From the NCBI GenBank assembly GCA_946220865.1, contig CAMJYM010000003.1:28428-92427 (forward strand): a stretch of DNA of 64,000 nucleotides, written 5' to 3'. A program made the position numbers and the translations under genes. The stretch is from an uncultured Clostridia bacterium. Lineage in GTDB: Bacteria > Bacillota > Clostridia > Saccharofermentanales > DTU023. This document shows positions 8,406-61,714 of this stretch, piece by piece. The notes below the pieces were generated by a model. The model was given only the letters and a program-made list of their open reading frames with translations. It did no database searches and was not told the origin of the DNA. How positions within the stretch are numbered: position 1 is the stretch's first letter; the number at the start of each line of letters is the position of its first letter.

Positions 8406-8579
8406 AGGACTGTTTTCGGGGCAGGGTGAAATTCCCTACCGGCGGTGAAGCCTCAGGGCTAAGTCCGCGAACCTCCGCAAGGAGGCCGAGAGGGTGCAAT
8501 TCCCTCACCGACGGTACAGTCCGGATGAAAGAAAACAAAACAGCTAAGCTGTGTCGTGCCCCGTTCGGGGCTTTTTTTA
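8404..8579 (+). promoter_or_regulatory. FMN riboswitch (RFN element) with expression-platform terminator
   Basis: Conserved RFN blocks are present: TTCGGGGCAGGGTGAAATTCCCTACCGGCGGT, AGTCCGCGA, GGTGCAATTCC and CCGACGGTACAGTCCGGATGAAAGAAAAC. A GCCCCG-TTC-GGGGC hairpin plus T7 follows at 8558-8578. Confidence 0.93.
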
Positions 8580-8605
8580 TGCCCAGAGAAAGGAGATCTG
8601 TTTCC

Positions 8606-9283
8606 ATGTTGAACAAAAGTAACGAGCAAGTCATTTGCGAGAGTAAAAACGTGAGCCAGGAAGGTTTTACGGCTGAAGACAGTTCGGTCATGCAGAGTCA
8701 TCAGCTGCACGTTAAATGGATCGCCAAAGTGGCTTTGCTCTCAGCCATTGCCTATGTCCTCATGATGCTGGAATTCCCTCTGCCGCTGATGCCGGATTTT
8801 CTCAAGTTTGACTTCAGTGAAATCGCTTCGCTGCTCGCCGCCTTCAGCATGGGGCCTCTGGCCGGCGTGATGGTCTGCCTGCTGAAAAACCTGCTGCATC
8901 TCCCTTTCAGCAATACCATGATGATTGGCGAGCTGGCCAATTTTCTGATAGGCGCTGCCTTTGTGGGCACGGCCGGTCTCATTTACAGCCGACATAAGAC
9001 AAAAAAAGCGGCCATGCTGAGTATGGCCGCCGGAACCGTTGCCATGACGCTTGTGGGTTCTCTCTTTAATTTATGGATCAACATTCCCTTTTACGTTCAG
9101 GTGATGGGCTTTCCCCTCGAGGCCATCATTGGCCTCTCCCAGGCAGCTGGTAATACCCTTGTTCACGATATGAGCAGCCTGATTCTCTGGGTCTTTGTCC
9201 CGTTTAACCTTTTTAAGGGCGGCCTCATTTCTGTCCTGGTCAGTCTGATGTACAAAAAAGTCAGCCCGCTGCTGCACAGCTGA
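8606..9283 (+). CDS. ribU: Riboflavin transporter RibU (ECF S-component)
   Basis: 225 aa from ATG 8606, with an AAAGGAG Shine-Dalgarno. The ORF-track start at 8426 reads through the riboswitch. Polytopic membrane protein directly behind an FMN riboswitch. Confidence 0.85.
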   Translation: MLNKSNEQVICESKNVSQEGFTAEDSSVMQSHQLHVKWIAKVALLSAIAYVLMMLEFPLPLMPDFLKFDFSEIASLLAAFSMGPLAGVMVCLLKNLLHLPFSNTMMIGELANFLIGAAFVGTAGLIYSRHKTKKAAMLSMAAGTVAMTLVGSLFNLWINIPFYVQVMGFPLEAIIGLSQAAGNTLVHDMSSLILWVFVPFNLFKGGLISVLVSLMYKKVSPLLHS

Positions 9284-19479: not shown

Positions 19480-21177
19480 TCAGCGCACGATGCGTTCCAG
19501 TTCTTCGACCGGGGGCAGATGGAAAAAGCGGCGCAGACGGACTTGCAGCCTGACGGCCTCACGCAGTTGCAGGCTGAGTCCGGCCACATAGTAGGTAAAC
19601 ACACCCAGGCCCATTTTGCAGGCATACCAGATCAGCTGCAGCAGCTTCCTGCCCGGATAAAGGGGAATCTGCTTCAAGCCCAGCAAAACCAGGGCAGCTG
19701 CCCCGGCACAAAAGCTCAGGCGCAGCATAAAGGGCAGAATGCGTGCAGGGCGATAATCATAGCGATGCCGCTTGTAGAGCTGGTAAAGCATGAGCGCCGT
19801 GACCACACTGTAACACGCATGGGCCAGGCCGATGCCTTCCAGCCCCAGGCCCATAGGTCCGGTAAAAATCCAGGAAAAAATGGGAATCAGGATCAGGGAA
19901 AGCAGCCCTGTAAAGAGAGCAAGGCGTGTGATTTTGCGGGCGTAAAAAGCCTGATTCGTGAGAAAAACCACTGTTTGCGCCAGCATGGTCACACAGAACC
20001 AGCGCAGGGCCGAGGCTGTGAGCGCCACCTGAGCATTGCTGTAGGTATCCGTGTTCCACTGAAAGATCGCCTGTATGGTCTCGAAGTTCAGGAGACCAAA
20101 GCCCAGGGCAAAGGGCAGAACATAAAAGAGCGCACGGCGCAGACTGGAACTGTAGAGGCTGCGTACTTTACGCGCGTCCTTCTGCGCATAAAAGCCGGCG
20201 AGATTAGGCAGCATGACATTGCCGATGGAGACAGCAAAAATAGCATAAGGGAGGCTCCAGCTCGTGATGCATTGACGTATTCCGGTCACAGATCCGGGTA
20301 TATTCAGACCATTGGCAAAACGGTTCATGATGATGGCGCTGAGATGCAGAACCGAACCTGAAAGCAGCGTGGGAATTGCCAGTTGAAGAAGACGCCTGAA
20401 GCCGGGATCCTGAAAATCCGTGTTCCAGCTGAACCAGTGCCACTCGTGGCGGCAGGCCAGGAACTGATAAAGAAAATAGATCAGAGCAGATCCCACCACG
20501 CCCAGGGCCACTGAGCGCAAACCTTTTTCCGAAGGCACGCCAAAGGCCAGAAGAACGGCCATATAACAGAGGTTATAGAGCGAAGGCCCAAGAGCCATGG
20601 GGGTAAAGCGCTTGTAAGCCGAAAGTACCCCGTGGGCGAGGGCAATCAACATCATGAAAAAACTCTGAATAAAGAGAATGCGGGTGACCGGAATGGACAT
20701 GGCCGTCATCGCTTTAAGATTTTCTGAGGCATCTGGCCCTGCACTGCCGGTAATCAGGCTCATGAGCGCAGGAGCAAGGAGCTCTGCCAGAAGAAGGCAG
20801 GCCGCCATGGCCAGAATGGCCGCGCTCATAAAGATATTGACACTTTGCCAGGCTTTTCCTTCACGTCTGCGCTCGATGCCCGAAGACAGAGTGGGCGTCA
20901 GAACGGCAGCCACAACGCCGCCGATGAGCAATTCGTAGATAAAGTCAGGTATCTGAAAAGCATTGATGTAAGCGTCAGAGAAGAGACCGTAACCAAACTT
21001 GGGGACAATCAGGAGTTCTCTCACAAAACCCGTTAATTTACCGAGAATCATCCCCGCCATATATATCAGGGTTGCCCGGCCGATGGTCGCCGCATCACCG
21101 GCACGAATATTGTGCCGCTCATTTTTAGTCCTGAGGCTGGAACCCCGCCTCGGCTGATCTTCCAAAGGAAACTGCAA
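19480..21177 (-). CDS. murJ: Lipid II flippase MurJ (MviN family)
   Basis: 565-aa polytopic protein. The N-terminal signature LGKLTGFVRELLIVPKFGYGLFSDAYINAFQIPDFIYELL is typical of MurJ. The exact start is uncertain. Confidence 0.85.
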   Translation of the reverse strand: MQFPLEDQPRRGSSLRTKNERHNIRAGDAATIGRATLIYMAGMILGKLTGFVRELLIVPKFGYGLFSDAYINAFQIPDFIYELLIGGVVAAVLTPTLSSGIERRREGKAWQSVNIFMSAAILAMAACLLLAELLAPALMSLITGSAGPDASENLKAMTAMSIPVTRILFIQSFFMMLIALAHGVLSAYKRFTPMALGPSLYNLCYMAVLLAFGVPSEKGLRSVALGVVGSALIYFLYQFLACRHEWHWFSWNTDFQDPGFRRLLQLAIPTLLSGSVLHLSAIIMNRFANGLNIPGSVTGIRQCITSWSLPYAIFAVSIGNVMLPNLAGFYAQKDARKVRSLYSSSLRRALFYVLPFALGFGLLNFETIQAIFQWNTDTYSNAQVALTASALRWFCVTMLAQTVVFLTNQAFYARKITRLALFTGLLSLILIPIFSWIFTGPMGLGLEGIGLAHACYSVVTALMLYQLYKRHRYDYRPARILPFMLRLSFCAGAAALVLLGLKQIPLYPGRKLLQLIWYACKMGLGVFTYYVAGLSLQLREAVRLQVRLRRFFHLPPVEELERIVR

Positions 21178-21239: not shown

Positions 21240-22829
21240 TTATTCCACTTCCAGAAAATCAAAAAAGCGAGTCAGGGCAAGCTGATCCGCCGCACCTCCG
21301 GGAGACAGACCCTTACGGCAAAGTTCCTGATTCCAGAGGCAGCAGGCCTCGGATCGCTCTTTTCGTGGCAAATTTAAAATTTCTGCGGCCCTCTTCTGCA
21401 TTTGGCAAAGCTCGTTCTGCGCACGTGCATGCTGACGTAAAGCAGCTCGACGCAGAATATTGCTGTCCTCAATGCGACTCATCAAATAGAGCAGGGCGGC
21501 AAGGGAGCTCTCATCTTCATCGCCCCCTTCGGCGCGCTCACGGCGAAGTATCGTGAGGGCGGATAAAGATTCACGATAGCCGCTCAGCACCGCTGCCCTC
21601 GCTCCCCTCTTTCGACTTTCTTCACTATCTCCCCGCCAGTCGAGAAAGGCGGTGGCCAATGCAGAGGCCCCGGTGGCAAGCTCTGTCGCCGTCGGGAAAA
21701 GAGCTTGTGTCACGTCTTGATGTAGCTCTTCTGACTCTCTTTGTTCAAACGCTCTGTCCAGAGCCTCCACTCGCTCCCTGAGCCTCTGACCAGCTGCAAA
21801 CAGCAAAAAGCCCAGGCTGAAGATCAAGCCCTGCTGCGTATTGACCTCGCCGCTGGCTCTGAACATGCTCCGTTCGGCTTGCTGTCCCAGTACTGCAAGG
21901 GTTTTGAAGGTTCCTATCTTGTCTGAATTATCCCTGTTTACGGAGCTGGCCATTCCGGCTTCTATAAACTTCCTCAGAGAAGGTCCGAGGGCGAGGGAGG
22001 AATCCACAAAACTGTAGATATCCATATCGGTATGCGCCCCCTGATCCAGTCGATCCACAAGGCCCGCTTTGGGTGTCGCGAGGGCTTCGTAAAACAGCGA
22101 TTTTTCGGCAGCCAGCCAGAGCGCATCTGCCGCTTCACTTAGCAAAGCCTCTTTCATCAGACGGCGGCTTTCACGTTCCAGCTCCTGCCAGCTATGAGCA
22201 CGCGAACGGGCACAAAAGCTAACTTTACGGCCGCAGATCAGGCAGGGCCTCTCGGCCCATCCCAGCGTTGAACGGCTGAGCTTCTGGCCAGTCTCAGGAA
22301 CATAAACATCGAGGTCCCAGAGGAGGCCTGCGGGCAGCCCATCTTCCAGTTCCAGGCAGAACGCTTTACAGCTCTGCGCATCCGTGGGGACCTCCAGCAG
22401 CGCCCAGGCTCCCGCTCTTCCCGCTCGGATCAGTGGTTCTTTCAGCTTACCGAAGCGGCGACTCAGCTCATCTACGAGCAAGGTCAGAGCCGCAGCGAAG
22501 AAAAAATCGGCAAGTGGACCTCTTTTATGGGGTCCGGCAAGATTAAGTGAAAAACTGAGCAGCGAATAGTGTGCTGCTCGGGCAGAATTGGAAGAACCTG
22601 AAATGGCACTGCTCAGAGAATCTCCCCTGCACAGCTGCTCTCGCCACGCTTCTCGTTGAGCCGCCTCCGTCTCTCGCTCGCTGAGGCTTTGCCTGAGCTG
22701 ATTTCGCAGCGCTTCCCGTTGAGCCACCCGGGTTTCGCGCTCTCTGAGGACATCGTCCAGCGAGGCTGCCTCAATACAGGCATCCAGCTGAAAACGGGGG
22801 TGGAGAAAAGAGGAGTGAAAATGCGGCAT
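21240..22829 (-). CDS. citXG: Fused CitX-CitG: holo-ACP synthase plus triphosphoribosyl-dephospho-CoA synthase
   Basis: The N-terminal ~190 aa are CitX-like (LSFSLNLAGPHKRG, LWDLDVYV). The C-terminal part is CitG-like (EALATPKAGLVDRLDQGAHTDMDIYSF). No obvious Shine-Dalgarno at the annotated ATG. Confidence 0.75.
   Translation of the reverse strand: MPHFHSSFLHPRFQLDACIEAASLDDVLRERETRVAQREALRNQLRQSLSERETEAAQREAWREQLCRGDSLSSAISGSSNSARAAHYSLLSFSLNLAGPHKRGPLADFFFAAALTLLVDELSRRFGKLKEPLIRAGRAGAWALLEVPTDAQSCKAFCLELEDGLPAGLLWDLDVYVPETGQKLSRSTLGWAERPCLICGRKVSFCARSRAHSWQELERESRRLMKEALLSEAADALWLAAEKSLFYEALATPKAGLVDRLDQGAHTDMDIYSFVDSSLALGPSLRKFIEAGMASSVNRDNSDKIGTFKTLAVLGQQAERSMFRASGEVNTQQGLIFSLGFLLFAAGQRLRERVEALDRAFEQRESEELHQDVTQALFPTATELATGASALATAFLDWRGDSEESRKRGARAAVLSGYRESLSALTILRRERAEGGDEDESSLAALLYLMSRIEDSNILRRAALRQHARAQNELCQMQKRAAEILNLPRKERSEACCLWNQELCRKGLSPGGAADQLALTRFFDFLEVE
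22634..22759 (-). repeat. In-frame 63-bp tandem duplication near the 5' end of citXG
   Basis: Units at 22634-22696 and 22697-22759 encode ERETEAAQREAWREQL and ERETRVAQREALRNQL. Roughly three quarters of the bases match, by eye. Confidence 0.8.
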
Positions 22830-22847: not shown

Positions 22848-23768
22848 TCAGAGCAGGAGTGTATTCAGATCGGCAAGGTCCTGCGTGTCTACCGCAATAA
22901 TGCCGACCAGAAGATAGCGGCCACTGATGTTCTCGCGCAAAAAGCTATGGTGCAGACGGAAATGCAGGATTTCACCTGTGCTTTTGACATGCATACGCGG
23001 ACCTGTGCAATAATGGCGTATTTCCCCGATAAGGATATGCGTATCATCCAGGTAGTTGATGGGAATATCCTTCTCAATCAGCGACTTGACTTCGGCCTCC
23101 AGTCCGGCAATATCAAAATCCGGTTCTTCCGCAAAGCTCAGAACAAAGCCGTGGCGTACATCATCGTGACTATACTGGAAAATATTGCGCCGACCCAGAC
23201 AATATTCCACCAGGTCTTCTGCGCTATGGGCCATGCGCCTGAATTTAAGCGAAGAAAAGACGATGTCCGTCACATCTTTAGGTTCCGGCCCGAAAAGGCT
23301 GGGGCGAGTCACGATAATTTCCTCACCTACGCCGATTAAAAGATCTGCATTGCGCTTGAGCACAGGATAAACCAGATCAAAATGTTCGACGATGACTCTT
23401 TTCCCTCGTTTCAGAGCTTCCTCAATGGCTGTCGCCAAAACGTGGAGCTGGGTAAAGCCCATTTCGAAACGCACATCCAGATGATAGGTGTGCGGCTCAA
23501 AGAAGCCGCTGCTCTCGAGATCCAGAAGCGGCAGGGGGCGTATATTGACCCCTTCATCATCATTGGTCAGCTCCAGACCGGGAAACATGCCCTTGATGAG
23601 GATGCTTTTACCGGATCCGGCTTCACCCACAACACCAATCAATTGATCGAAGGGGGAAAGGTACATCTGGGCGATCTGCGCCCCGGTATCGGCAATACGC
23701 ATCCGCCCACGCGGGGCCAGCAACACACTGTAGAGCTGGTTTTTCTGCATTCTTGCGGAATAGGACAT
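22848..23768 (-). CDS. P-loop NTPase fused to a His/Cys-motif C-terminal domain, function unknown
   Basis: 306 aa with a strong AAGGAGGAG Shine-Dalgarno. Walker A is GEAGSGKS (res 48-55) and a candidate Walker B is RVIVEHFD. C-terminal motifs MAHSAEDLV and YCTGPRMHVKSTGEI. Confidence 0.8.
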   Translation of the reverse strand: MSYSARMQKNQLYSVLLAPRGRMRIADTGAQIAQMYLSPFDQLIGVVGEAGSGKSILIKGMFPGLELTNDDEGVNIRPLPLLDLESSGFFEPHTYHLDVRFEMGFTQLHVLATAIEEALKRGKRVIVEHFDLVYPVLKRNADLLIGVGEEIIVTRPSLFGPEPKDVTDIVFSSLKFRRMAHSAEDLVEYCLGRRNIFQYSHDDVRHGFVLSFAEEPDFDIAGLEAEVKSLIEKDIPINYLDDTHILIGEIRHYCTGPRMHVKSTGEILHFRLHHSFLRENISGRYLLVGIIAVDTQDLADLNTLLL

Positions 23769-24007
23769 TTTCTCCTCCTTAGTGGGCCAGTCCAGACGGC
23801 CAGGCCTGTCACGGCAGGACTTCTGCCGCAGCGAGTCCTCTGTGGCCGCTGCTCATGCCATCATAGCCATAAGCCTGGCGGAAATAGCGCTCATATCTCA
23901 GATATAGATATCAGGCTGCCTGCTTCGACGGAAACAGACAGCCTGAATGAACCTTTTCCGTTTATACGGAGGCTCTGCTCTTTTCCTTTTGACAAGCTGC
24001 TTTCAGC

Positions 24008-25249
24008 TTACTTGGCCGCGAGGCGGGCGAGCACGCGCTGCATCTCGTTGTTTACGATCATATAACCTTCATCGACCCCCATACCCGGTTTGGCGAGAAT
24101 CTGATCGGGCTGTGTGGCCAGCGCAATGTCCGTGCAGACCTGCGCCGAGCGGTCGGTTTCGTTACAGGTTCCGCCCTGATAGGCGCCAATGCCGACCTTT
24201 TTGCAGTAGAGCACGGCCTCGATGGTATTGTTGACGCCGCCGAGATCCGGGGTCTTGATCTGAATCATATGACCAGCTTTTTCATCTGCGAAAAGTTTAA
24301 TATCTTCCCAGGTATTGCACCATTCATCGGCCACGATTTCCACGTGAATCTGACGCGCATCCAGTTCTTTGCGCAGTCCGGCCAGACAGCGAATCTGAGC
24401 TTCCCTGCCGCCCGCATCCATGGGACCTTCAATGCGCAGGTGGAAGGGTTTGGCCGCTTCTTCCAGGGTGGCCATATAGTCGGCCATGGCGGTGTAGTTA
24501 TCGTCACCGAAAACCATGCCGATGGTGCCGTAGCAGTCAATGTGCAGCACCGGCTGATAGTTTTCGTCACGGCGCATCTCGCGGATGCGATGAGAGAGCC
24601 ATTTGACATAATCGAGAAGGATTTCACCCTTGTGCCCGAGTTTTTCTTCGACGTTATTGATCAGAGCGTGGGGCAGTACCTGAGCCTCTTTAATGATCAT
24701 TTTTTCCGTATTCTCATAACGGTTGTCGCCGGACTGGGTAAAGATAGGAATGGGCTTCTTTGAAATGCTGCAGTTGTATTCACGGGCCACGGTTTCCGTA
24801 ATCAGCTCTTTATGGGCTTTTGCAACAGCATCAAGCAGCGCCTGAGACACACCGTAACGGATGGCTGTATGCAGGGCTTTGCCATTGACGCGGATGGCTT
24901 CAAGCTCAGCGGCCAGTTCTTTGAAAGAATGCAGCTCTTTGCCGATAAAATGAGGTATCACCTCAGATTCGATCAGGGGAATATAATCGGCGGCGAGGAA
25001 AAGCGGGTCGCGTCCGCCGGCTCCGGAGTATTGGACGGCGGCGCAATCGCCGAAAGCCCATTCTCCATCCTCGAGTTGAATCTGCACGGAGATGCTTTCA
25101 CCGGCCTGACGGATCGATGTAAAACCGGGAGTCACGGCTTCTCCTACATAATTAAAGCCATCGTGTCCTGCGCCCTGTTTGATGGCCTTCTGGTCATCAA
25201 AGTAAAAGCCGGTTTTGCCTGCAGAGTAGATCATTTTCTGAATTTTCAT
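24008..25249 (-). CDS. mal: Methylaspartate ammonia-lyase (beta-methylaspartase)
   Basis: 413 aa. The N-terminus MKIQKMIYSAGKTGFYFDDQKAIKQGAGHDGFNY and the enolase-superfamily body match clostridial MAL. Adjacent to glutamate mutase genes. Confidence 0.9.
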   Translation of the reverse strand: MKIQKMIYSAGKTGFYFDDQKAIKQGAGHDGFNYVGEAVTPGFTSIRQAGESISVQIQLEDGEWAFGDCAAVQYSGAGGRDPLFLAADYIPLIESEVIPHFIGKELHSFKELAAELEAIRVNGKALHTAIRYGVSQALLDAVAKAHKELITETVAREYNCSISKKPIPIFTQSGDNRYENTEKMIIKEAQVLPHALINNVEEKLGHKGEILLDYVKWLSHRIREMRRDENYQPVLHIDCYGTIGMVFGDDNYTAMADYMATLEEAAKPFHLRIEGPMDAGGREAQIRCLAGLRKELDARQIHVEIVADEWCNTWEDIKLFADEKAGHMIQIKTPDLGGVNNTIEAVLYCKKVGIGAYQGGTCNETDRSAQVCTDIALATQPDQILAKPGMGVDEGYMIVNNEMQRVLARLAAK

Positions 25250-25296
25250 AAGATTCCTTTCCTGGCGCCTTCCGCGCCACTGATATTTTTATCTCT

Positions 25297-26754
25297 TTAA
25301 TGTTTGGGACGACCCACCAGACGGCCTTTACTGATCGCATAAACGTCGTCGATCACCATCTGGAAGGAAGCCTTACGTTTTTCAAATCTGGCCCGTTCTT
25401 CAATTTTTTTCCTGTGGAAGTCCTTCAGTTCCTGAGTAAAGGGCACTGCACCCATGGCAAAGACGCGCACCGCCCCGTCATTATCGCGGGCGGGCAGCAT
25501 TTTGCCGGCATTGTAGCGGCTGGGCGCAAAGGGAATATCGATGACACCAGCCTGAATGCCGCGAATAGCGCCCTGGGCAATATCGCCATCCCCGAGTTCG
25601 ATACACTTGTCCAGGACACAGCGCGTCTCTTCTTCAATGATACGCTTTTCTTCCATAAGGCTGTGGGGATCGAGGAACTGATCGCCCACCATGTTAATGA
25701 CCTGCTTCGTGCAGCGCAGTCCCTCAGCATTGGCCTCTTTGGTCGGAACACCTACAGCTTCGTGCGGGGTTTTGACAATGACCTTGGTGGCGTGCGAAAG
25801 CGCCGCCACAACCGAGCCCCAGGAAATGACAGCGAAGGCCTTGGCTTCATCCTGTGGGAAGCCACCCATCCACTGGTGCAGAACGGTCGTCACATAGACA
25901 TCATTGTAACCGAAGCGCCGCAGGTATTCCTCTGTAAGTGTCTGCAGCGTGTTGAGGGCAGCCACATCCTGAATCAGGTTGCCACACTGACCATAGCCTA
26001 CCGTGATGTTTTTAACCCCCTGCTCAGCCGCAAGCAACGCTTCGATGATGGCAACGGCATGCGAGACAAAGGGCGGGACAAGCGTCCCGGTCAGCGGTCC
26101 GTAAGGTTCACGATTGATGATCGCCCCTGCTTCTCCATAAATGCCGGTGAGGCGGTCAACATACTGCCAGTCATAAATGGTTTTCTCCAGTGATACATTT
26201 TTAGCGTAGGGAATATTGTAGGAAATACCGCCCCCCTCATAGCTGGTAAAGCCGCCGGCAAAGGCGATTTCCGTCAGCAAACGGGCGTCCGGTGTACCGT
26301 GGCGCACCTGGATCGGCACATCGACGGAAGAGGTCACCTGGCGGCAACCGGTCACCCCATGATTAACCGCCGGAAAACCGTTCAGCATGGACTTGCCGGT
26401 TTTAATGGATTCCTGGATGCCCACTTCGGCTTCCTGGAAGCGCTTCTGACGGGTATAGCTGTCGATGGTCGTCGGCAGCAGATCAGCTTCACCCTCATCC
26501 TGCAGGAAACGCAGGAGTTCTATGTGCTTATCAATCAGCGCAACGCCGGCACGGGGCTGAATCAGTGTATGTCCGCTCTCCTTGGCCAGGCGCAGCTTGC
26601 TGCTGAAGTTTTTCTCCGCCGGGATCGTTTTCTGATAGTCTACGCCGTCCTCAAGCCGGGCGACGTCCTTTCCTGTCTCCCAATGCTGCAGAACTTCATT
26701 TCTGAGACGGTAGAACTCGTCATCACTCAGGCGTTTGTTGCGAACTTCACTCAT
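25297..26754 (-). CDS. glmE: Glutamate (methylaspartate) mutase epsilon subunit
   Basis: 485 aa, the canonical GlmE/MutE length. Placed between glmL and mal in the typical order. Confidence 0.88.
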
Positions 26755-28129
26755 GACTTAACTCCTTTTTCATGATTTTCAGGGCCAGTTCCGGCCGGCT
26801 CTGCGCCAGCACTCCCATGGCCGATAAAATATATTGGCGATCCACCAGAATATGGAAGCGTTCCGGTCTCAGCGAAGTGGGCAGGCTGGGCGTCCACTGG
26901 GCGTGGCGCACGATCTCAGCCGTATGCGGGCTGCGCACGAGAGCTCCCCCGGTAACAACCATCTGTTCAACACCCCGCAGATCTTTGCCGTACTGTGCAT
27001 AAGTCAGACCAACCGGGGTATAGACCTGTTCAACTCTGCCGCAGTGTCGGGTCACCGCAATCTCCACCGCCCAGGAGGCGAGGGCATCATCAAGGCGCTG
27101 CAGCTTATCATTATCCGGCAATTTATCCTTATGTTTCATGAGCTCCGCACTCAGCGAGAGCACTTCGTCTTCGGACAGTCCGGCACGCTCTGCCACTTTG
27201 TCACAGCCCGCCGCTTCGAGAATACCACCGAGGCTGTAGCGCATGCCGATATCCCCCTCTACGGTTCTCTTTTCACGAGGTTCCGGCAGTCCTTTGAGGA
27301 CGGTGGTCATATCGCGCGGCGCTCCATCGGAAATGGAATAAACGTCCGTGGTCGCTCCTCCTGGATCGACGGCAATGAGATCGCCAATGCCCGCCTCCCC
27401 GGCCGTTCCCTGAGACAGCAGCTTGACTGCCGCCAGCACAGCCGCCGGAGTAGGCATCACAATATCGGAAATCATGCTGCTAACTGAACTGAGACCCTTG
27501 GCCTTGACAATCTCCCGGAGAAAAATCTCCCGGATCAGATCCTGCACGGGTTTAATATTCAATTCGTCCAGCCGTGGCATGACATTGGGGCAGAGAGTAA
27601 ATTCTTTTCCGGCAGCGCTCAGGATCTTCTTGATTTTCCTTCCGGCAGAACGATTGCCGGCTACAAGGATCGGAGCCGTCATCGAGCTTTCAGCAAGGAC
27701 CTCGGCATTTTCAAGGATACAGGCGCTGTTACCCCCGTCTGTCCCTCCGGTCAGCAGAAAAATATCCGGTTTCAGGGCTTCCAGCTCTTCCCTGTCCTCG
27801 TCGGTCATCTCATGGTCGAAAACGCGAATGACTTTAGCCCCTGCTCCCAGAGCCGCCGTGCGCGCCGCTTCGGCTGTAAGCTCGGGCACCAGACCGGAAA
27901 CCGCCATACGCAGGCCTCCAGCTGCACTGGAACAGGCTTTAATCTCTGCAATCTCAAGCTCGTTGACCTGAGCTTTCAGCCGTTCCAAAGCAAGCTTAAA
28001 GCCGTCGTTAATGTCGCTTTCCACCGTCGTGAAAGCTGAGGCGGTACCGATCAGCTCTTCCTTTTCCGGATCGACTGCCGTGACTTTGGTAAAGGTGCTG
28101 CCAAAATCGCAGAGCAGAATAGCCTTCAT
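26747..28129 (-). CDS. glmL: Glutamate mutase accessory/reactivating protein GlmL (MutL)
   Basis: 460 aa with an ASKHA-like N-terminus [19 protein letters not shown]. Lies between glmS and glmE with overlapping stop and start codons. Confidence 0.8.
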
Positions 28130-28614
28130 CAGAGCTTTTCCTCCATCATGGCTTCAAGATCTTCTTCGCTCATGCTGCCCTCATCCGGGCCGTCATCCTG
28201 AACACCGAGATCCAGTTTAAGACAGCGAATGGTTTCTTCGGGTGGAGTGCTCGGCGGGAAAACCCGGTTAAAGCCCATGGCATGGAAGCGGGCTTCAACA
28301 TCCTTAAAATCCTGTTTGCCTACAACAATGTTCCCGCCACAATAGAGCAGGATATCTCCCAGGCCGGCCTCATCGCATTTTTCCCGGAGACCGCGGCAGT
28401 CCAGTTCTCCGTGGCCATAGAGTGAGGAAATGACAATCGCATCGGCGGCCGTTTCGACCGCTGCTGCAATGTATTCCTCCTGCGAAACCATGACGCCGAG
28501 ATTCGTGACATCAAAGCCAGCTTCCCGGAAGGCGAAATCCAGAATGCGGATACCCACAGCGTGGACATCCGCTCCGATGACCCCTATCACCAGTTTTTTT
28601 CCATTGTGTTTCAT
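28129..28614 (-). CDS. glmS: Glutamate (methylaspartate) mutase sigma subunit, B12-binding, with an acidic C-terminal extension
   Basis: DxHxxG cobalamin-binding motif (GADVHAVG). Collinear with clostridial MutS up to about residue 137, then has an extra [22 protein letters not shown] tail. Confidence 0.88.
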
Positions 28615-28639
28615 GCTTGCTTCCTTTCAAACGGGTGTA

Positions 28640-29737
28640 TCACCCTTTGCTGGAGTCCTGACACTGACGTCTCTGTTCTCCCATAGCTTCAAGCTCCTCG
28701 CGAATGCGGGTGAGTGACGCGCGTTCACAATCCATACGGAATAGGATCAGCTCCCCTCCCCGACGGACAAATTCCTTCAAGGCCGCATTCAGCTCCTGCT
28801 GAATAAAGCCCATATACTCCGCAGGCACCAGGATAACCTCCCTGTCCTGAATGAAGTTAAAGATATCTTTATCATGAAAAAGTTTAAGTTCAGGGTGCTG
28901 ACTCAGGTGGGCATAGTTGACACAGGCTTCCATGAGCTCACCGCCGTACGTCCGCGACAAGCTGAGAATGCCGACCTTGCGGTCTTCTGGCAACCGGGCC
29001 AGACTGATCAGACTCAGGGGACTGGCGCAGAGGCCCAGCAAAAAAAGACGCGAACGACTATCCCTGCTTGTCTCCTGGAGTTTTATGGCACGATAGACTT
29101 CCTCCGTGGCAACCACAGCATCAAAATCTTCTGTAGAAATCCGGCCTGCCAGCAGGTCATCAAAGGGATAGGCGAATAATTCAAGATCCGGCAGCGCCGA
29201 AAAGGCATTGAGCATGATCGAGCGTTCTTCCGGGCTGTTGGCCACGAGCATGATGGAGAGATCTTCGCTGTGCTCATCGCGCTCACGCAGTTTAAGTTCA
29301 AGAAAAATTTGAATTTCCCGGCGCCGGAAGCCCATTTCATTCAGCTCATCCAGCATCCGGTCGATGGCGCCCATGGCCTGCTCTTTGCGGGAAAGTTCCA
29401 CAGACCCTTTATCGGGAAGATAAGTTACAAAGCTGCCCTTGCCCTGAGTGAGGCTCACCAGACCTTGCTGCTCCAGCCGATTGTAGGCGTGCTTCACTGT
29501 ACCCCGGGACAGGCTGAGACTCGCGGCCAGTTCACGCACCGTGGGCAGACGGCTGCCATCCGGCAGTTTTTCGCTTTCGATTAACTGCCCAATACCTGTC
29601 GCCAGCTCCATATAGATGGGCTGGGATCCACTCAGCACAGAACGGGGCGGGAGCATATCCCGGATCAGGCTCAGATTTTCCTTTGGAGAAACTCGCTGCA
29701 CAGTCTTCCTCAGCTCTCCTGTTGCTCTTTCAGCCAT
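28640..29737 (-). CDS. GntR-family transcriptional regulator with a large C-terminal effector domain
   Basis: Winged-HTH signature LPTVRELAASLSLSRGTVKHAYNRLEQQGLVSLTQGKGSFV. The start may be the downstream ATG at 29656, because the annotated start overlaps the upstream gene by 28 nt. Confidence 0.8.
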   Translation of the reverse strand: MAERATGELRKTVQRVSPKENLSLIRDMLPPRSVLSGSQPIYMELATGIGQLIESEKLPDGSRLPTVRELAASLSLSRGTVKHAYNRLEQQGLVSLTQGKGSFVTYLPDKGSVELSRKEQAMGAIDRMLDELNEMGFRRREIQIFLELKLRERDEHSEDLSIMLVANSPEERSIMLNAFSALPDLELFAYPFDDLLAGRISTEDFDAVVATEEVYRAIKLQETSRDSRSRLFLLGLCASPLSLISLARLPEDRKVGILSLSRTYGGELMEACVNYAHLSQHPELKLFHDKDIFNFIQDREVILVPAEYMGFIQQELNAALKEFVRRGGELILFRMDCERASLTRIREELEAMGEQRRQCQDSSKG

Positions 29738-30273
29738 TTTTCGGGACCTTCTGCGTAAAGATTATGGCCTTCACAATCGATGAGCACGAGCAAAGGCATC
29801 TCTTCAACACGAAGTCGCCTGACCGCCTCAGCCCCAAGGTCAGGATAGGCAATGATCTCCGCTTCCTTGATGGATTTGGCCAGAAGCGCACCCGCACCGC
29901 CAACTGCACCAAGATATACGGCACCAGCCTCTTTCATCGCTGCAATGACTTCGGCATTGCGCTTGCCCTTGCCGATCATCCCGAGCTGACCCAGCTTCAG
30001 TAAAGCCGGCGCATAAGCGTCCATGCGGTAGGAGGTGGTGGGGCCGGCAGAACCGATGACATGTCCAGGGGCAGCCGGTGTCGGCCCAACATAATAGATG
30101 ACTGAACCCTCGATGGGGAAAGGCAGCTCCCCGCCCTGCTCAAGAGTCTCAACAAAGCGCTTGTGCGCGGCGTCACGCGCCGTGTAGATGGTGCCGGAAA
30201 GATAGACCCGATCGCCGCATTTCAGCTGGCGCGTCTGCTCTTTTGTCAAAGGTGCAGAAATATGATGTTCCAT
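29710..30273 (-). CDS. Fe-S hydro-lyase beta subunit (class I fumarase/tartrate dehydratase type), probable mesaconase small subunit
   Basis: 187 aa. Signature GTIYTARDAAHKR...GPTTSYRMD, typical of the FumA C-terminal / TtdB family. Context is the methylaspartate pathway. Confidence 0.8.
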   Translation of the reverse strand: MEHHISAPLTKEQTRQLKCGDRVYLSGTIYTARDAAHKRFVETLEQGGELPFPIEGSVIYYVGPTPAAPGHVIGSAGPTTSYRMDAYAPALLKLGQLGMIGKGKRNAEVIAAMKEAGAVYLGAVGGAGALLAKSIKEAEIIAYPDLGAEAVRRLRVEEMPLLVLIDCEGHNLYAEGPEKWLKEQQES

Positions 30274-31112
30274 CAGAGAACCTCCGTGACGTGGCGAGTC
30301 GCATGACAGTTGATATTCACAGCAACCGGCAAACCAGCGATATGCGTGGGCAGCACTTCGATATGGACGGCCAGGGCCGTCGTTAACCCACCGTAGCCCT
30401 GAGGACCGATGCCCAGGCGATTGATGCTTTCGAGAAGCTCCCGCTCAAGTTCAGCATAGTAAGGATCCGGATTGTGCTGACCAAGCTCTCGCAGCAGCGC
30501 TTCTTTGGCCAGCAGGCAGGACTTATCAAAGTTACCGCCGATACCCACGCCCACAACCGTCGGTGGACAGGGGTTAGGTCCGGCCTCCCGTACCGTCTCC
30601 AGAATAAAAGCTTTGACACCTTCGAGACCATCCGAAGGTTTCAGCATTTTCTGGCGGCTCATATTTTCGCTGCCAAAGCCCTTTGGCGCGACCGTCAGTT
30701 TGATTTTATCGCCGGGCACAAGTTTAAGGTAGAGCATCGCAGGCGTATTGTCGCGCGTATTCTCCCGGCGCAGCGGATCGCGTACGATGCTCTTGCGCAG
30801 ATATCCCTCCGCATAGCCCTGACGCACGCCCTCATTGACCGCTTGCTCAAGATCGCCGAGTAGATGAACCTCCTGCCCCAGCTCCACGAAAACAAGCGCC
30901 ATGCCTGTATCCTGGCACATCGGAACCTGATCGTCTTCGGCAATTTTCATGTTCTGCAGGATATCGTCCAGCGCTGCTGCTCCGATAGCTGATGTCTCGC
31001 AGGCCCGCGCTGTTTTGAGGCATTTGCGCACATCCTCAGGGAGAACTCGGTTGGCCTTTATGCACATCTCTCTGATTGGAGCCACAAGCTCACTTACTGG
31101 AAATTCTCTCAT
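30273..31112 (-). CDS. Fe-S hydro-lyase alpha subunit (class I fumarase type), probable mesaconase large subunit
   Basis: 279 aa with the motifs PMCQDTGMALVF and GVGIGGNFD of class I fumarase N-terminal domains. Confidence 0.8.
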   Translation of the reverse strand: MREFPVSELVAPIREMCIKANRVLPEDVRKCLKTARACETSAIGAAALDDILQNMKIAEDDQVPMCQDTGMALVFVELGQEVHLLGDLEQAVNEGVRQGYAEGYLRKSIVRDPLRRENTRDNTPAMLYLKLVPGDKIKLTVAPKGFGSENMSRQKMLKPSDGLEGVKAFILETVREAGPNPCPPTVVGVGIGGNFDKSCLLAKEALLRELGQHNPDPYYAELERELLESINRLGIGPQGYGGLTTALAVHIEVLPTHIAGLPVAVNINCHATRHVTEVL

Positions 31113-60643: not shown

Positions 60644-61714
60644 TCAACGATTGCCGCACTGCCTTTCGGCCAGATATTTAGGCGTCAGCCAGGGTCTTGA
60701 ACTCGCTGGAGCCAGTTTCTGCGCCAGTTTAAAATCACCTGCTTTCAGAGCAGCGCGGATACGTCCTGCGGAAATAGGCTGTCCTTCCTCATCGACACTG
60801 CGCTGCACAATCTCACAGTTGATTCCTGCAGGTGGAAGCAAACGCTGAAGCTGGGCATTATATTGCCGTGTCAGCTCCGAAAAAGGCTCTGAACCTAAGA
60901 CCCGGCTCGTTAGATTCAGGCGTCTGGCCAGACGGATAAAAATTTTGGCGTCTAACTCTGCCTGGAGGGCCGTAGCTTCATCCTTGCTTTTGAGAAAATA
61001 GCTTGGAAAAGTCGAAGAAGAGATCAGGTAATCTCCTGTTTCATGCAGGCAGAGCCGGGGAATATCCCGAACTGCCGCCAGAAGCATGTCTTTTCGCTCG
61101 CGCGTGGTAAAGAAAGAGCGATCTTCGGACAACAGAAAAAGATGGGTTAAATCAAAACGGGCCACCGTCTCCTGAATGAGTCGCAGATGCCCTCTGCTTA
61201 TGGGGTTCAGATTCATGACCAGAGCCGCCTGCCTGAGGCCCTTCTGCTTCAACCCGGCTTGCGTCCACTGCAAGGCACAGGCCTCCGCCTCTTCTTCCTG
61301 CCTGGCCAGATAACGCTCAAAAGCGCCAGCCTTATTCTCCATAAAAAGCATGCGGTCAGAGGCGCTTTCAATGAGGAAGAAGCCAAAATTTCTGTAGAGC
61401 TCAAGGTATTCGGCTTTACCCCAGAGGAACACATGAAAGATGCCATGCTCAGCCAGACGCGAGATGAGAGCTGAAACCAACTGATTCATCAGACCTTCTC
61501 CGCGAAGATCTGCACGGCAGACCAGACTGCGCAGAGACTTTCCGCAGATCCCCCCTGCAGCCACAAGTTCAGCCTGTGCATTGCGCAGGGACAGAATCTC
61601 CTCCAGACCAGCATCGCGCCTGATGCCTGAGGCCTCACAGAGCGCATCATATTCCCTCAAGGCTCGCTGGTCGTGGGCAAAAACAGGGGCAAGAGTGTAA
61701 GCTTCCATAGCCAT
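60644..61714 (-). CDS. citC: [Citrate (pro-3S)-lyase] ligase-type acetate:SH-ACP ligase
   Basis: GNAT-like N-terminus plus the cytidylyltransferase-fold motif NLNPISRGHLRLIQ and YLISSSTFPSYFLK, as in CitC. Confidence 0.8.
   Translation of the reverse strand: MAMEAYTLAPVFAHDQRALREYDALCEASGIRRDAGLEEILSLRNAQAELVAAGGICGKSLRSLVCRADLRGEGLMNQLVSALISRLAEHGIFHVFLWGKAEYLELYRNFGFFLIESASDRMLFMENKAGAFERYLARQEEEAEACALQWTQAGLKQKGLRQAALVMNLNPISRGHLRLIQETVARFDLTHLFLLSEDRSFFTTRERKDMLLAAVRDIPRLCLHETGDYLISSSTFPSYFLKSKDEATALQAELDAKIFIRLARRLNLTSRVLGSEPFSELTRQYNAQLQRLLPPAGINCEIVQRSVDEEGQPISAGRIRAALKAGDFKLAQKLAPASSRPWLTPKYLAERQCGNR

Follow-up and report, generated by a model that had tools for sequence, protein, structure and literature searches.

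The gene considered here is a single open reading frame on the minus strand of the window, the whole 64,000-nt stretch of DNA that was analysed, and was identified from the ORF listing and its translation into 306 amino acids (aa). Table 1 gives an overview of the gene, its conserved motifs and its neighbours. Directly upstream is mal, encoding methylaspartate ammonia-lyase, and the citX-citG fusion begins 18 nt past the stop codon, which agrees with the preliminary description of a gene lying between mal and citXG. The sequence motifs named in that description are likewise all present, at residues 48-55, 124-131, 181-185 and 254-267 of the protein.

The spacer between mal and the gene is unusually structured, with a predicted RNA fold of -99.9 kcal/mol (z = -4.87 relative to shuffled sequences) and a 15-bp hairpin (23912-23945) found nowhere else in the window. 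A riboswitch or terminator at this position was considered and rejected, since an Rfam search matched no family in the spacer or anywhere in the cluster and no terminator-like site was found in the spacer.

Table 1. Positions of the 306-aa gene, its domains and motifs, and surrounding features in the window
Feature	Residues	Position	Strand	Basis
Upstream pathway genes, mesaconase alpha to mal		24008..31112	-	Pfam and NCBIfam matches above curated thresholds
Mesaconase alpha		30273-31112	-	Pfam/NCBIfam
Mesaconase beta		29710-30273	-	Pfam/NCBIfam
GntR regulator		28640-29737	-	Pfam/NCBIfam
glmS		28129-28614	-	Pfam/NCBIfam
glmL		26747-28129	-	Pfam/NCBIfam; PF13941
glmE		25297-26754	-	Pfam/NCBIfam
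mal		24008-25249	-	TIGR01502, E 1.7e-181
Structured intergenic region, mal to 306-aa gene (239 nt)		23769..24007	-	RNA folding
Shine-Dalgarno AAGGAGGAG, 3 nt 5' of the ATG; core AGGAGG (23774-23779) 5 nt from it		23772..23780	-	Direct sequence reading
Start codon ATG		23768-23766	-	
Two-domain protein, complete CDS (306 aa plus stop)	1-306	22848..23768	-	ORF, translation, homologues 57-97% identical over full length, AlphaFold2 model
TsaE/YjeE-like P-loop ATPase domain (predicted)	1-155	23304..23768	-	Foldseek, hhalign, weak Pfam TsaE match
Walker A, GEAGSGKS	48-55	23604..23627	-	G48, G51, G53, K54, S55 invariant; aligned to TsaE GDLGAGKT
Nearly invariant loop GMFPGLELTNDDEGVNIRPLP, at the TsaE SPT switch position	60-80	23529..23591	-	Alignment, hhalign
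YHLDVRFE, counterpart of TsaE YHxDxYR	95-102	23463..23486	-	Aligned to TsaE YHFDLYRL
RVIVEHFD, Walker-B-like strand, counterpart of TsaE ICLVEW	124-131	23376..23399	-	Alignment, hhalign, model
Conserved interdomain linker TRPSLFGPEP	154-163	23280..23309	-	T154, R155, P156, F159, G160, P161, P163 invariant (57-sequence alignment)
AlaX-S/AlaRS-editing-like domain (predicted)	156-306	22848..23303	-	Domain-only model, Foldseek, tRNA_SAD
HSAED, counterpart of AlaX-S HSALH (HxxxH)	181-185	23214..23228	-	Equivalence by motif order and fold
CTGPRMHVKSTGEI, counterpart of AlaX-S CNKEHTKTTGEI	254-267	22968..23009	-	hhalign; two-residue insertion including R258
citX-citG fusion (holo-ACP synthase plus triphosphoribosyl-dephospho-CoA synthase)		21240..22829	-	PF03802, PF01874
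CitC-like gene elsewhere in the window		60644-61714		

A TsaE-like ATPase domain packed on an AlaX-like domain

The 306-aa gene encodes a soluble protein of two domains, a TsaE-like P-loop ATPase domain packed on an AlaX-S-like domain, and the full-length AlphaFold2 model (pLDDT 87.8, pTM 0.85) presents them as two packed units. With the window protein as query, Pfam and NCBIfam gave nothing at E<0.01 and no model at threshold, and phmmer and profile hmmsearch against PDB sequences gave only Walker-A-level ABC matches, with neither AlaX nor TsaE among them. Homology was detected solely through structure prediction with Foldseek, Pfam scans of individual family members, and hhalign. Together, Foldseek, hhalign and the AlphaFold models support the earlier structural reading of a P-loop N-terminal half and an editing-like C-terminal half. 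Two of the three observations that the preliminary description had set against itself were not made: the C-terminal half does resemble AlaX/AlaRS, and no confident match to an unrelated characterised family was obtained from Pfam, NCBIfam or PDB sequences.

TsaE, also known as YjeE or YdiB, is the ATPase of bacterial t6A tRNA modification. On comparison of models and profiles, the N-terminal domain is a predicted P-loop ATPase of the same fold. Its best Foldseek matches are the TsaE structures 1htw, 1fl9, 5np9, 6n9a_E and 6nak_D (E 2.6e-5 to 1.2e-4), and hhalign against TsaE returns E-values of 1.1e-5 (local) and 7e-6 (global), the helix-P-loop-helix element aligning at 82% probability. The Pfam TsaE model (PF02367) is weakly matched by 48 of 57 family members (best member E 4.6e-3) and by the window protein at 11.8 bits, below the gathering score of 26.6. 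The two proteins share a domain size of about 150 aa and four collinear motifs, consisting of Walker A, the V..P switch, YHxDxR and hhhhE-aromatic. The features of a P-loop NTPase are present as a Walker A of the form GxxxxGK[ST] and invariant D98 and E128 at strand ends. Within the 57 aligned sequences Y95, H96 and D98 never vary, R100 reaches at least 90% conservation, and an invariant E128-H129 pair ends the Walker-B-like strand, modelled at residues 124-128.

The N-terminal domain differs from TsaE in several respects. The SPT switch is not conserved and a longer invariant loop, LTNDDEGVNIRPLP, stands in its place; most positions of residues 60-80 are invariant or at least 90% conserved among the 57 sequences, and global hhalign sets V74...P78 of the loop on V58...P61 of TsaE. 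Model pLDDT is 60-70 across residues 61-90. Unlike TsaE, it shares its chain with an AlaX-like domain, and its conserved genomic surroundings are those of glutamate fermentation (glm, mal, cml and cit), whereas TsaE is functionally linked to TsaB and TsaD. Because of these neighbours and the sub-threshold Pfam score, the family should not carry the TsaE annotation with which some annotation pipelines mislabel its members.

Turning to the C-terminal domain, a domain-only AlphaFold model has a pLDDT of 89.3, and the 18 best PDB matches by Foldseek consist entirely of AlaX and AlaRS editing domains (E 3e-5 to 2.4e-3, TM 0.48-0.60). These are its sole confident PDB matches, with a probability of 1.0. 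The closest folds, at TM 0.55-0.60, are AlaX-S of Pyrococcus horikoshii (PH0574; PDB 1v4p, 1v7o, 1wnu), whose sequence was checked against 1v4p and 1v7o, and the editing domains of AlaRS and ThrRS. The Pfam tRNA_SAD model (PF07973) is matched by 38 of 57 family members below its gathering score of 24 bits, at residues ~245-277 of the homologues. Ten homologues scanned singly scored 12-18 bits, the best E-value in the family is 7.3e-5, and one member (P0314) carries a precomputed PF07973 match; the window protein itself gave no tRNA_SAD match even at E<=10. As judged from fold and profile comparison, the domain is homologous to AlaX and AlaRS editing domains. It has the size of the minimal free-standing AlaX-S (about 150 aa) and keeps the order of its elements, namely the H-S-A-x-x helix, 'F..KP...E..V...I....PI.Y', the Cys loop and H-[VT]-K-[ST]-T-G-E-I.

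The zinc motifs of AlaX, HxxxH and CxxxH, are found only in altered form as H181xxxD185 and C254x5H260-VKSTGEI. By hhalign, C254 falls on C116 of AlaX-S, H260 on H120, and TGEI on TGEI. The preliminary description had already noticed the altered spacing and an Asp replacing the second His, and both hold: five residues instead of three separate Cys from His, with an invariant P257-R258 inserted, and D185 occupies the place of the second His in HxxxH. Among the 57 sequences C254, P257 and R258 are invariant, and H181, E184, D185 and H260 are at least 90% conserved; H181, D185, C254, R258 and H260, together with K54 and S55 of the ATPase domain, are conserved across Clostridia, Chloroflexota and Spirochaetota. 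The domain thus appears to retain a remodelled, putative metal or catalytic site composed of H181, D185, C254 and H260 plus the inserted R258. In contrast to AlaX-S, it does without ~25 residues between the 'PIKIY' strand and the Cys loop, is fused to a predicted ATPase and is encoded in a catabolic operon. It is also acidic rather than neutral or basic, with a median net charge of -9 for the domain and a pI of 5.0-6.0 for the whole protein across the family, compared with a pI of 7.8 for AlaX-S.

A family tied to methylaspartate-pathway clusters

At E<=1e-3, 3553 database proteins match the 306-aa protein, the best 120 of them being 58-97% identical over their full length. Relatives are encoded in at least 569 species-representative genomes, mainly of Clostridia but also of Chloroflexota and Spirochaetota, with Treponema and Sphaerochaeta among the carriers. 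Cultured carriers are Bittarella massiliensis, Hydrogenoanaerobacterium, Vallitalea pronyensis, Petroclostridium sp. and Clostridium sediminicola. Identity across phyla is 57-69%, a level of conservation on par with that of the pathway enzymes. A profile search of 1.84 billion representatives yielded 329 clusters, nearly all fragments of the same family, and no informative paralogous family. The family is therefore compact, isolated and strongly conserved, and has no characterised member; a literature search found no paper on it. Three apparent fusions (P0218, P0261 and P0148) have N-terminal parts that look unrelated by eye, one of them acetate kinase-like, and were treated as assembly or gene-call chimeras. 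The present analysis corrects the automatic labels TsaE, SAR1 GTPase and AlaRS-domain protein that family members carry.

As a dedicated accessory component, the family belongs to methylaspartate-pathway clusters, which serve glutamate fermentation. Neighbours were counted within 10 kb at the 40 loci flanked by at least 9 kb on both sides. At 36 of these, drawn from three phyla, glmS-glmL-glmE-mal lie in range, so that the synteny with these genes proposed as a check in the preliminary description is conserved. Even the divergent members P0124 and P0127 sit in the same type of cluster. A GntR-family regulator is part of most clusters. The gene is usually found at the far cluster end, after mal or cmlB, and never adjoins glmL, glmS or glmE; it is often the last gene, with variable downstream neighbours, and a CobO-type adenosyltransferase gene follows directly in 7 loci. 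All-against-all clustering of neighbouring ORFs returned only known genes and antisense shadow ORFs, with neither a recurrent uncharacterised gene nor a co-varying partner.

The clusters differ in their citramalate lyase. Neighbours annotated as AtuA and DUF4387 were identified as CmlAB, an ACP-independent lyase reported to cleave citramalate directly and employed in E. coli on the basis of cmlAB alone. Nineteen of the 40 loci are of this type, with no CitD, CitE, CitF, CitG or CitX within 10 kb and the 306-aa gene directly after cmlB, and 15 are of the CitDEF/CitG type; the two sets of genes are mutually exclusive among the loci. CitG/X lies immediately downstream of the 306-aa gene in 13 loci and CitC immediately upstream in 4, and one locus (L006) keeps the gene with citG but has no glm or mal within 10 kb. 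Since the family occurs with both CitDEF/CitXG and CmlAB, it is most probably not a factor specific to one lyase, and its occurrence points instead to the common part of the pathway, namely glutamate mutase, methylaspartase and their intermediate.

The E. coli O157-type cluster has no 306-aa gene, though glmL and cobO are present. A 314-aa hypothetical protein encoded upstream of its glmS was considered as a cryptic homologue and rejected by BLASTP and hhalign; it has no Pfam match. The gene is likewise missing from the cluster gene list that PMC4682846 gives for classical glutamate fermenters. From these absences it follows that the protein is no universal requirement of the pathway. The same list, to which the CmlAB lyase should be added, agrees with the earlier remark that the known steps of the pathway leave the protein unexplained.

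Candidate functions

Characterised catalytic members of the AlaX fold, consisting of AlaX itself and the editing domains of AlaRS and ThrRS, hydrolyse mis-acylated tRNA. The reading preferred here, tentatively and with a probability of roughly 0.3, is that the 306-aa protein is an ATP-gated hydrolase that proofreads mis-activated 3-methylaspartate. The AlaX-like domain would be a metal-dependent hydrolase of an aminoacyl ester, and its target would be the non-proteinogenic intermediate of the pathway, (2S,3S)-3-methylaspartate. The substrate may be 3-methylaspartyl-tRNA or an adenosine-linked ester produced by an aspartate-type aminoacyl-tRNA synthetase, with its beta-carboxylate read by the metal and Arg258. 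No chemistry would come from the TsaE-like domain, whose role would be that of an ATP-driven switch controlling access or the binding of a partner. In favour of proofreading stand the two-domain architecture, the near-invariance of the putative active-site residues across three phyla, and the ties to pathway genes with either lyase.

A precedent for proofreading is offered by CtdA, the canavanyl-tRNA(Arg) deacylase of Pseudomonas canavaninivorans, a bacterium that uses canavanine. The logic proposed here would be the same, with stand-alone editing in a host that catabolises a non-proteinogenic amino acid. However, the fold of CtdA (B3/B4 of PheRS) is unrelated, it has a positively charged tRNA-binding surface and no ATPase domain, and its function is demonstrated whereas that of the 306-aa protein is one that we infer. 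Literature searches found no report of 3-methylaspartate mis-activation by any synthetase and no biochemical evidence on the family. The acidic pI and charge are unfavourable for direct tRNA binding, a weak counter-argument. Known trans-editing factors need no ATPase, and TsaE is not known to bind tRNA. Also counted against proofreading were the ~25 missing AlaX-S residues, the altered HxxxH and CxxxH motifs and the absence from the E. coli cluster.

The main rival, judged rather unlikely, is a factor that maintains B12 or glutamate mutase, its TsaE-like ATPase docking on the ASKHA-fold protein GlmL. The ATPase would drive or reset either the removal of damaged cofactor from GlmS/GlmE or the loading of adenosylcobalamin, and the task of the C-terminal domain would be to hold the adenosyl moiety or, with its Cys/His site, to act as a cobalt ligand. 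TsaE itself docks onto the ASKHA proteins TsaD and TsaB, AlaX-type domains normally read a 3'-terminal adenosine, and P-loop ATPases in cofactor-enzyme operons are commonly chaperones or activases, such as MeaB. The TsaE-like N-terminal domain is consistent with such a role, as are the ASKHA-like character of GlmL (PF13941 plus weak hydantoinase A matches) and its presence in the clusters apart from L006. The invariant, low-confidence loop (residues 60-92) occupies the position of the TsaE switch that senses partner and nucleotide, which suggests that it folds on a partner, cobO is at times the adjacent gene, and the protein, like the mutase, is common to both lyase types. Against this, the gene is never next to the glm genes, L006 carries it with citG but apart from glm and mal, and glmL and cobO occur without it in the E. 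coli-type cluster. The hydrolase-type motif set and the inserted Arg are also not obviously needed for adenosyl binding, and neither in sequence nor in fold does the protein resemble MeaB/G3E chaperones or known cobalamin-binding domains; searches of Pfam, NCBIfam, PDB sequences and Foldseek gave nothing of the G3E/MeaB (SIMIBI) type.

Among known reactivation systems, the protein is like MeaB, DdrAB, EutA and GlmL in being a predicted NTPase encoded with an adenosylcobalamin-dependent mutase, sometimes with CobO adjacent. It is unlike both G3E GTPases and ASKHA reactivases, and no NKxD motif was seen. One specific version of this rival, which we regard as unlikely, would have the 306-aa protein and GlmL form a TsaE-ASKHA-type pair borrowed from the t6A machinery to service glutamate mutase, with the AlaX-derived domain, which originally read the aminoacylated 3'-adenosine of tRNA, now handling the 5'-deoxyadenosyl/cobalamin cofactor or its breakdown products. 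In that case the protein would represent a new type of chaperone for B12 enzymes.

An equally improbable alternative is a regulatory switch or sensor, in which the AlaX-like pocket would bind glutamate, 3-methylaspartate or mesaconate and the TsaE-like domain would be a small kinase or ATPase, the two together modulating an enzyme or the GntR-type regulator. An AlaX-S pocket does bind a free amino acid, as PDB 1wnu is AlaX with L-serine, and TsaE/YdiB homologues are reportedly protein kinases (work on 5np9). The GntR gene in most clusters and the frequent position of the 306-aa gene at the end, before variable neighbours, fit an accessory or regulatory role, and an acidic pI is in keeping with a function in binding proteins or small ligands. 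However, the protein lacks both a DNA-binding domain and any recognised signalling domain, and a specific co-varying partner was not seen. Whether TsaE-like proteins act as kinases is debated, and residues of catalytic type that are so strongly conserved are more usual in an enzyme.

A role in maturation or repair of the ACP-type citramalate lyase, as a deacylase for wrongly acylated 2'-(5''-phosphoribosyl)-3'-dephospho-CoA on CitD or in dephospho-CoA supply for CitG, is very unlikely: the proximity to citXG in the window, the CitG/X and CitC neighbours elsewhere, the retention with citG at L006 and a prosthetic group that is an acylated adenosine derivative reminiscent of aminoacylated A76 speak for it, but specificity for this lyase was largely rejected on the CmlAB-type loci, which carry the gene with no cit genes in range. 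Replacement of CitC was rejected as well, since CitC is encoded beside the 306-aa gene in several clusters (L007-L009, L013 and others) and the window has a CitC-like gene of its own at 60644-61714. Pfam and NCBIfam revealed no homology to CitC, CitX or CitG, and a literature search on citrate-lyase deacetylase found nothing relevant.

Whichever function applies, the protein unites two folds whose other known settings are the quality control and the modification of tRNA, and at least 569 species genomes, many of gut and digester anaerobes, tie a further gene to those of the pathway. Should the protein edit 3-methylaspartyl-tRNA, CtdA would be joined by a second known example of editing directed at a non-proteinogenic amino acid, and the protein would be the first enzyme of the AlaX type to combine an ATPase gate with a substrate whose side chain is acidic. 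If GlmL is its partner instead, it would help explain how glutamate mutase stays active. The gene is a concrete candidate to include in transplants of the pathway, for example in synthetic methylaspartate cycles.

The two-domain architecture of the target protein

In the target protein, an ATPase domain of the TsaE type that keeps its nucleotide-binding signature intact is fused to an AlaX-like domain whose putative metal site is conserved, though remodelled. It is encoded by a single ORF of 306 codons plus a stop that starts at an ATG with AAGGAGGAG 3 bases 5' of it, and every motif quoted in the preliminary description is found in its translation. Neither Pfam nor NCBIfam returned a model at E<0.01 on the window protein, Pfam at E<=10 gave Walker-A-level matches only, and searching PDB sequences with either the protein or its domain profiles yielded P-loop matches only. 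With a 57-sequence alignment as input, AlphaFold2 confidently predicts (pLDDT 87.8, pTM 0.85) two packed alpha/beta domains with the invariant linker TRPxxFGPxP between them.

The N-terminal domain comprises residues 1-155. Its top Foldseek matches in the PDB are TsaE/YjeE/YdiB entries (1htw, 6nak_D, 1fl9, 5np9 and 6n9a_E; E 2.6e-5 to 1.2e-4), followed in the same ranking by AlaX-M 2e1b (E 2.5e-4). Against a small TsaE alignment, whose sequences were checked against PDB entries, hhalign gave 82% probability and E 1.1e-5 across helix-P-loop-helix. The global alignment (E 7e-6) keeps four motifs collinear, pairing Walker A, the V..P switch, YHLDVR with YHFDLYR, and RVIVEH with ICLVEW. TsaE (PF02367) is also matched weakly in 48 of the 57 family members. 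The initial reading of this half as a P-loop NTPase is thus borne out, and Foldseek and hhalign sharpen it to TsaE-like.

Turning to the C-terminal domain (residues 156-306; pLDDT 89.3 when modelled alone), every one of the 18 top Foldseek matches is an AlaX-S, AlaX-M or AlaRS editing domain (E 3e-5 to 2.4e-3, TM 0.48-0.60), and a ThrRS-like mitoribosomal protein chain comes next. The Pfam family tRNA_SAD (PF07973) was matched in 38 of 57 members scanned separately (best E 7.3e-5); in ten individually scanned members the match lies at residues ~245-277 and is always under the gathering score. Aligned by hhalign with P. horikoshii AlaX-S (sequence confirmed as PDB 1v4p/1v7o), FVLSFAEEPD...IEKDIPINY falls on LIVKFDRKPS...VKENAPIKIY, C254 on C116, H260 on H120 and TGEI on TGEI, whereas ~25 AlaX residues between the PIKIY-type segment and the Cys are absent from the target. 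HSAED, from its order among the motifs and its place in the leading helix, corresponds to HSALH (9-13) of AlaX-S. Because H181, D185, C254 and H260 are conserved, the putative AlaX-type metal ligands appear to be kept as His/Asp/Cys/His in a site of inferred geometry, and an invariant Arg (R258) is inserted into the Cys-His loop. The C-terminal half therefore does resemble editing domains, as had been proposed, by Foldseek, tRNA_SAD matches and hhalign, and these searches gave no confident match to an unrelated characterised family. The combination of domains also explains why database names of homologues differ: some are labelled 'alanine-tRNA synthetase second additional domain-containing protein' by NCBI, and others TsaE or SAR1 GTPase by JGI.

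Conservation across the 57 sequences (invariant or >=90%) includes the Walker A Lys/Ser, most positions of GMFPGLELTNDDEGVNIRPLP (residues 60-80), Y95-H96-x-D98-x-R100, E128-H129-F130, the interdomain linker, H181/E184/D185, H201, G207-F208, C254, P257, R258 and H260. Loop 60-92 is near-invariant yet modelled at pLDDT 60-70, a pattern typical of segments ordering on a partner or ligand.

Family size and divergent members

Of 5.8 billion proteins searched, 3553 matched at E<=1e-3, and the best 120 of these are full-length (about 281-329 aa) at 58-97% identity. When each species was represented by one genome, at least 569 stretches encoding the protein were found. Among the matches listed, carriers are chiefly Clostridia (Oscillospiraceae, Saccharofermentanales and others); those in Chloroflexota/Anaerolineae, Treponema and Sphaerochaeta share 57-69% identity with the window protein. 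Only 329 clusters, nearly all fragments, came out of a profile search against 1.84 billion representatives clustered at 50% identity. The family is compact and isolated.

Two divergent full-length members, P0124 and P0127, retain the motifs and lie in the same type of pathway cluster. P0130 (locus L086) retains the AlaX-type His/Cys/His and has lost HxDxR and the E-H of the ATPase domain; P0139 (loci L090 and L091) lacks these and, in its AlaX-like domain, the His and Cys-His motifs as well. Both are possibly degenerate or neofunctionalised paralogues. Downstream of P0139 are genes for a cupin-HTH regulator and an AMP-binding enzyme, and no mal genes.

Linkage to the methylaspartate pathway

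The target gene and the pathway genes are tightly linked. In the window it lies between mal and citXG, in agreement with the preliminary description. The other members of this minus-strand cluster are assigned by Pfam and NCBIfam matches that exceed the curated thresholds.

Features of the target protein and of the window
Feature	Position	Strand	Basis or remark
Target gene	22848-23768	-	
Walker A motif GEAGSGKS	residues 48-55		read from translation
RVIVEHFD	residues 124-131		read from translation
HSAED within MAHSAEDLV	residues 181-185		read from translation
CTGPRMHVKSTGEI	residues 254-267		read from translation
Mesaconase-type class I fumarase, alpha	30273-31112	-	Pfam/NCBIfam
Mesaconase-type class I fumarase, beta	29710-30273	-	Pfam/NCBIfam
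GntR regulator	28640-29737	-	Pfam/NCBIfam
glmS	28129-28614	-	Pfam/NCBIfam
glmL	26747-28129	-	Pfam/NCBIfam
glmE	25297-26754	-	Pfam/NCBIfam
Methylaspartate ammonia-lyase (mal)	24008-25249	-	Pfam/NCBIfam
mal-target spacer	23769-24007	-	239 nt
Perfect 15-bp hairpin in spacer	23912-23945		no U-tract
citX-citG fusion	21240-22829	-	Pfam/NCBIfam; starts 18 nt past target stop
MurJ/MOP-type membrane protein	19480-21177	-	Pfam/NCBIfam
CitC-like ligase	60644-61714	-	37 kb from target
ORF, 427 aa	61714-62997	-	adjoins CitC-like gene; no Pfam family
ORF pair, 200 and 173 aa	33157-34292	-	no Pfam family
ORF, 352 aa	19303-20361	+	no Pfam family
FMN riboswitch RF00050	8408-8540	+	115 bits, full length; overlaps start of ORF 8426-9283

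The 352-aa ORF, which runs antisense across part of the MurJ-like gene, is unlikely to be a real gene. The MurJ/MOP-superfamily gene is also kept 3' of citXG in loci L005, L006 and L025 (48-59% identity), of which L006 lacks glm and mal; its product may be a cluster transporter, not a lipid II flippase. The mal-target spacer has an unusually stable fold (-99.9 kcal/mol, z = -4.87), no Rfam match and a hairpin that occurs just once in the window; it may act as an mRNA processing/stability element or as an attenuator between two expression units.

Pathway genes were located by tblastn in 84 fetched loci, 40 of them fully flanked (>=9 kb on both sides of the target gene). Synteny with glutamate mutase genes is conserved: in 36 of the 40, glm and/or mal lie no more than 10 kb away, usually directly upstream on the same strand, and 2 of the other 4 have citG, or citDEF plus mesaconase. 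The immediate upstream neighbour is DUF4387 (28 loci), mal (15), divergent citDEF (8) or citC (4). Downstream it is citG/X (13), mesaconase (8), cobO (7) or citDEF (5) and otherwise varies; no further recurrent neighbour was found among the examined loci. A few genomes carry an orphan target gene with no glm/mal gene within 10 kb. In L056 (7594-9322), the genes for two CoA-transferase subunits are ~1 kb upstream of it, separated from it by one for an iron-dependent repressor, and in L075 its flanking genes encode a cyclophilin and a glycosyltransferase-like protein.

An AtuA-family gene (PF07287, formerly DUF1446) and DUF4387 (PF14330) lie between mal and the target gene in 19 of the 40 loci, and citDEF and/or citG/citX are present in 15; the two types never occur together. 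The AtuA/DUF4387 pair, found at L002:8211-9911, in 30 or more other loci and in E. coli (L085:11499-13183), matches PDB 9erq/9evf (E 2e-162 and 1e-30), deposited as 'Citramalate lyase, subunit A (cmlA)' and 'subunit B (cmlB)'. PGAP names the pair 'acyclic terpene utilization AtuA family protein' and 'DUF4387 domain-containing protein'. Its identity as cmlAB settles the 'DUF1446' gene noted downstream of mal (PMC4682846). The cluster types are mutually exclusive because either an ACP-dependent CitDEF-type lyase or CmlAB is used, the two lyases being alternatives for the pathway's last step. The window has the citX-citG fusion and the distant CitC-like ligase as lyase maturation enzymes and none of citD, citE, citF or cmlAB, so the citramalate-cleaving enzyme of this organism must be encoded elsewhere.

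The E. coli O157-type cluster, ordered glmS-glmL-glmE-mal-AtuA-DUF4387-transporter-fumD-cobO, has no target homologue. In strain 118UI, two hypothetical proteins without Pfam match (314 and 140 aa; L085:4958-6405) are encoded directly upstream of glmS in the glutamate-fermentation island. The 314-aa protein was considered as a relative and rejected as unrelated on comparison, and the 140-aa protein is likewise unrelated.

Possible functions

Since the target accompanies both lyase types, its role should concern the shared part of the pathway: glutamate mutase, GlmL, methylaspartase or their intermediates. Our tentative best guess, at a probability of about 0.3, is that the AlaX-like domain acts as a hydrolase on an aminoacyl ester of 3-methylaspartate, a non-proteinogenic intermediate and aspartate analogue. 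The most plausible substrate would be a mis-charged tRNA; the metal and Arg258 may read the extra carboxylate of the amino acid, with the TsaE-like ATPase perhaps serving as a gate. Hydrolysis of mis-acylated tRNA is, to our knowledge, the only chemistry of the AlaX-type fold, which favours editing, as does the convergence of two independent lines, fold and genomic context. A precedent in favour is CtdA, an editing factor in a bacterium with canavanine as nutrient. Against editing stand the acidic character of the family (pI 5.0-6.0, vs 7.8 for AlaX-S), an ATPase domain superfluous for this task, an E. coli-type cluster that lacks the gene, and a literature in which no report of 3-methylaspartate mis-activation was found.

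TsaE partners the ASKHA-fold proteins TsaD/TsaB. The main rival, a doubtful one, is that the TsaE-like domain would similarly partner ASKHA-fold GlmL in exchanging the B12 cofactor of glutamate mutase; cobO next to the target gene in 7 loci and the partner-type loop support this, whereas gene order in the clusters speaks against it, as does L006, where the target gene and citG are kept and neither glm nor mal lies within 10 kb. That the target is a regulatory sensor or kinase is less probable still. A factor for the ACP-dependent lyase is the least credible of these readings; a role in lyase maturation is unlikely despite adjacency to citXG. The remaining probability belongs to something else.

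The protein is descended from AlaX-type and TsaE-type domains and would work like them. It should not be filed in either functional family, since it falls below both Pfam thresholds (tRNA_SAD in the case of AlaX), lacks the canonical HxxxH/CxxxH pattern of AlaX and has glm, mal, cml and cit genes as its conserved neighbours where TsaE is linked to TsaB/TsaD. A full-text literature search found no paper on the family. What is new here is the fusion of known folds together with a very consistent metabolic context.
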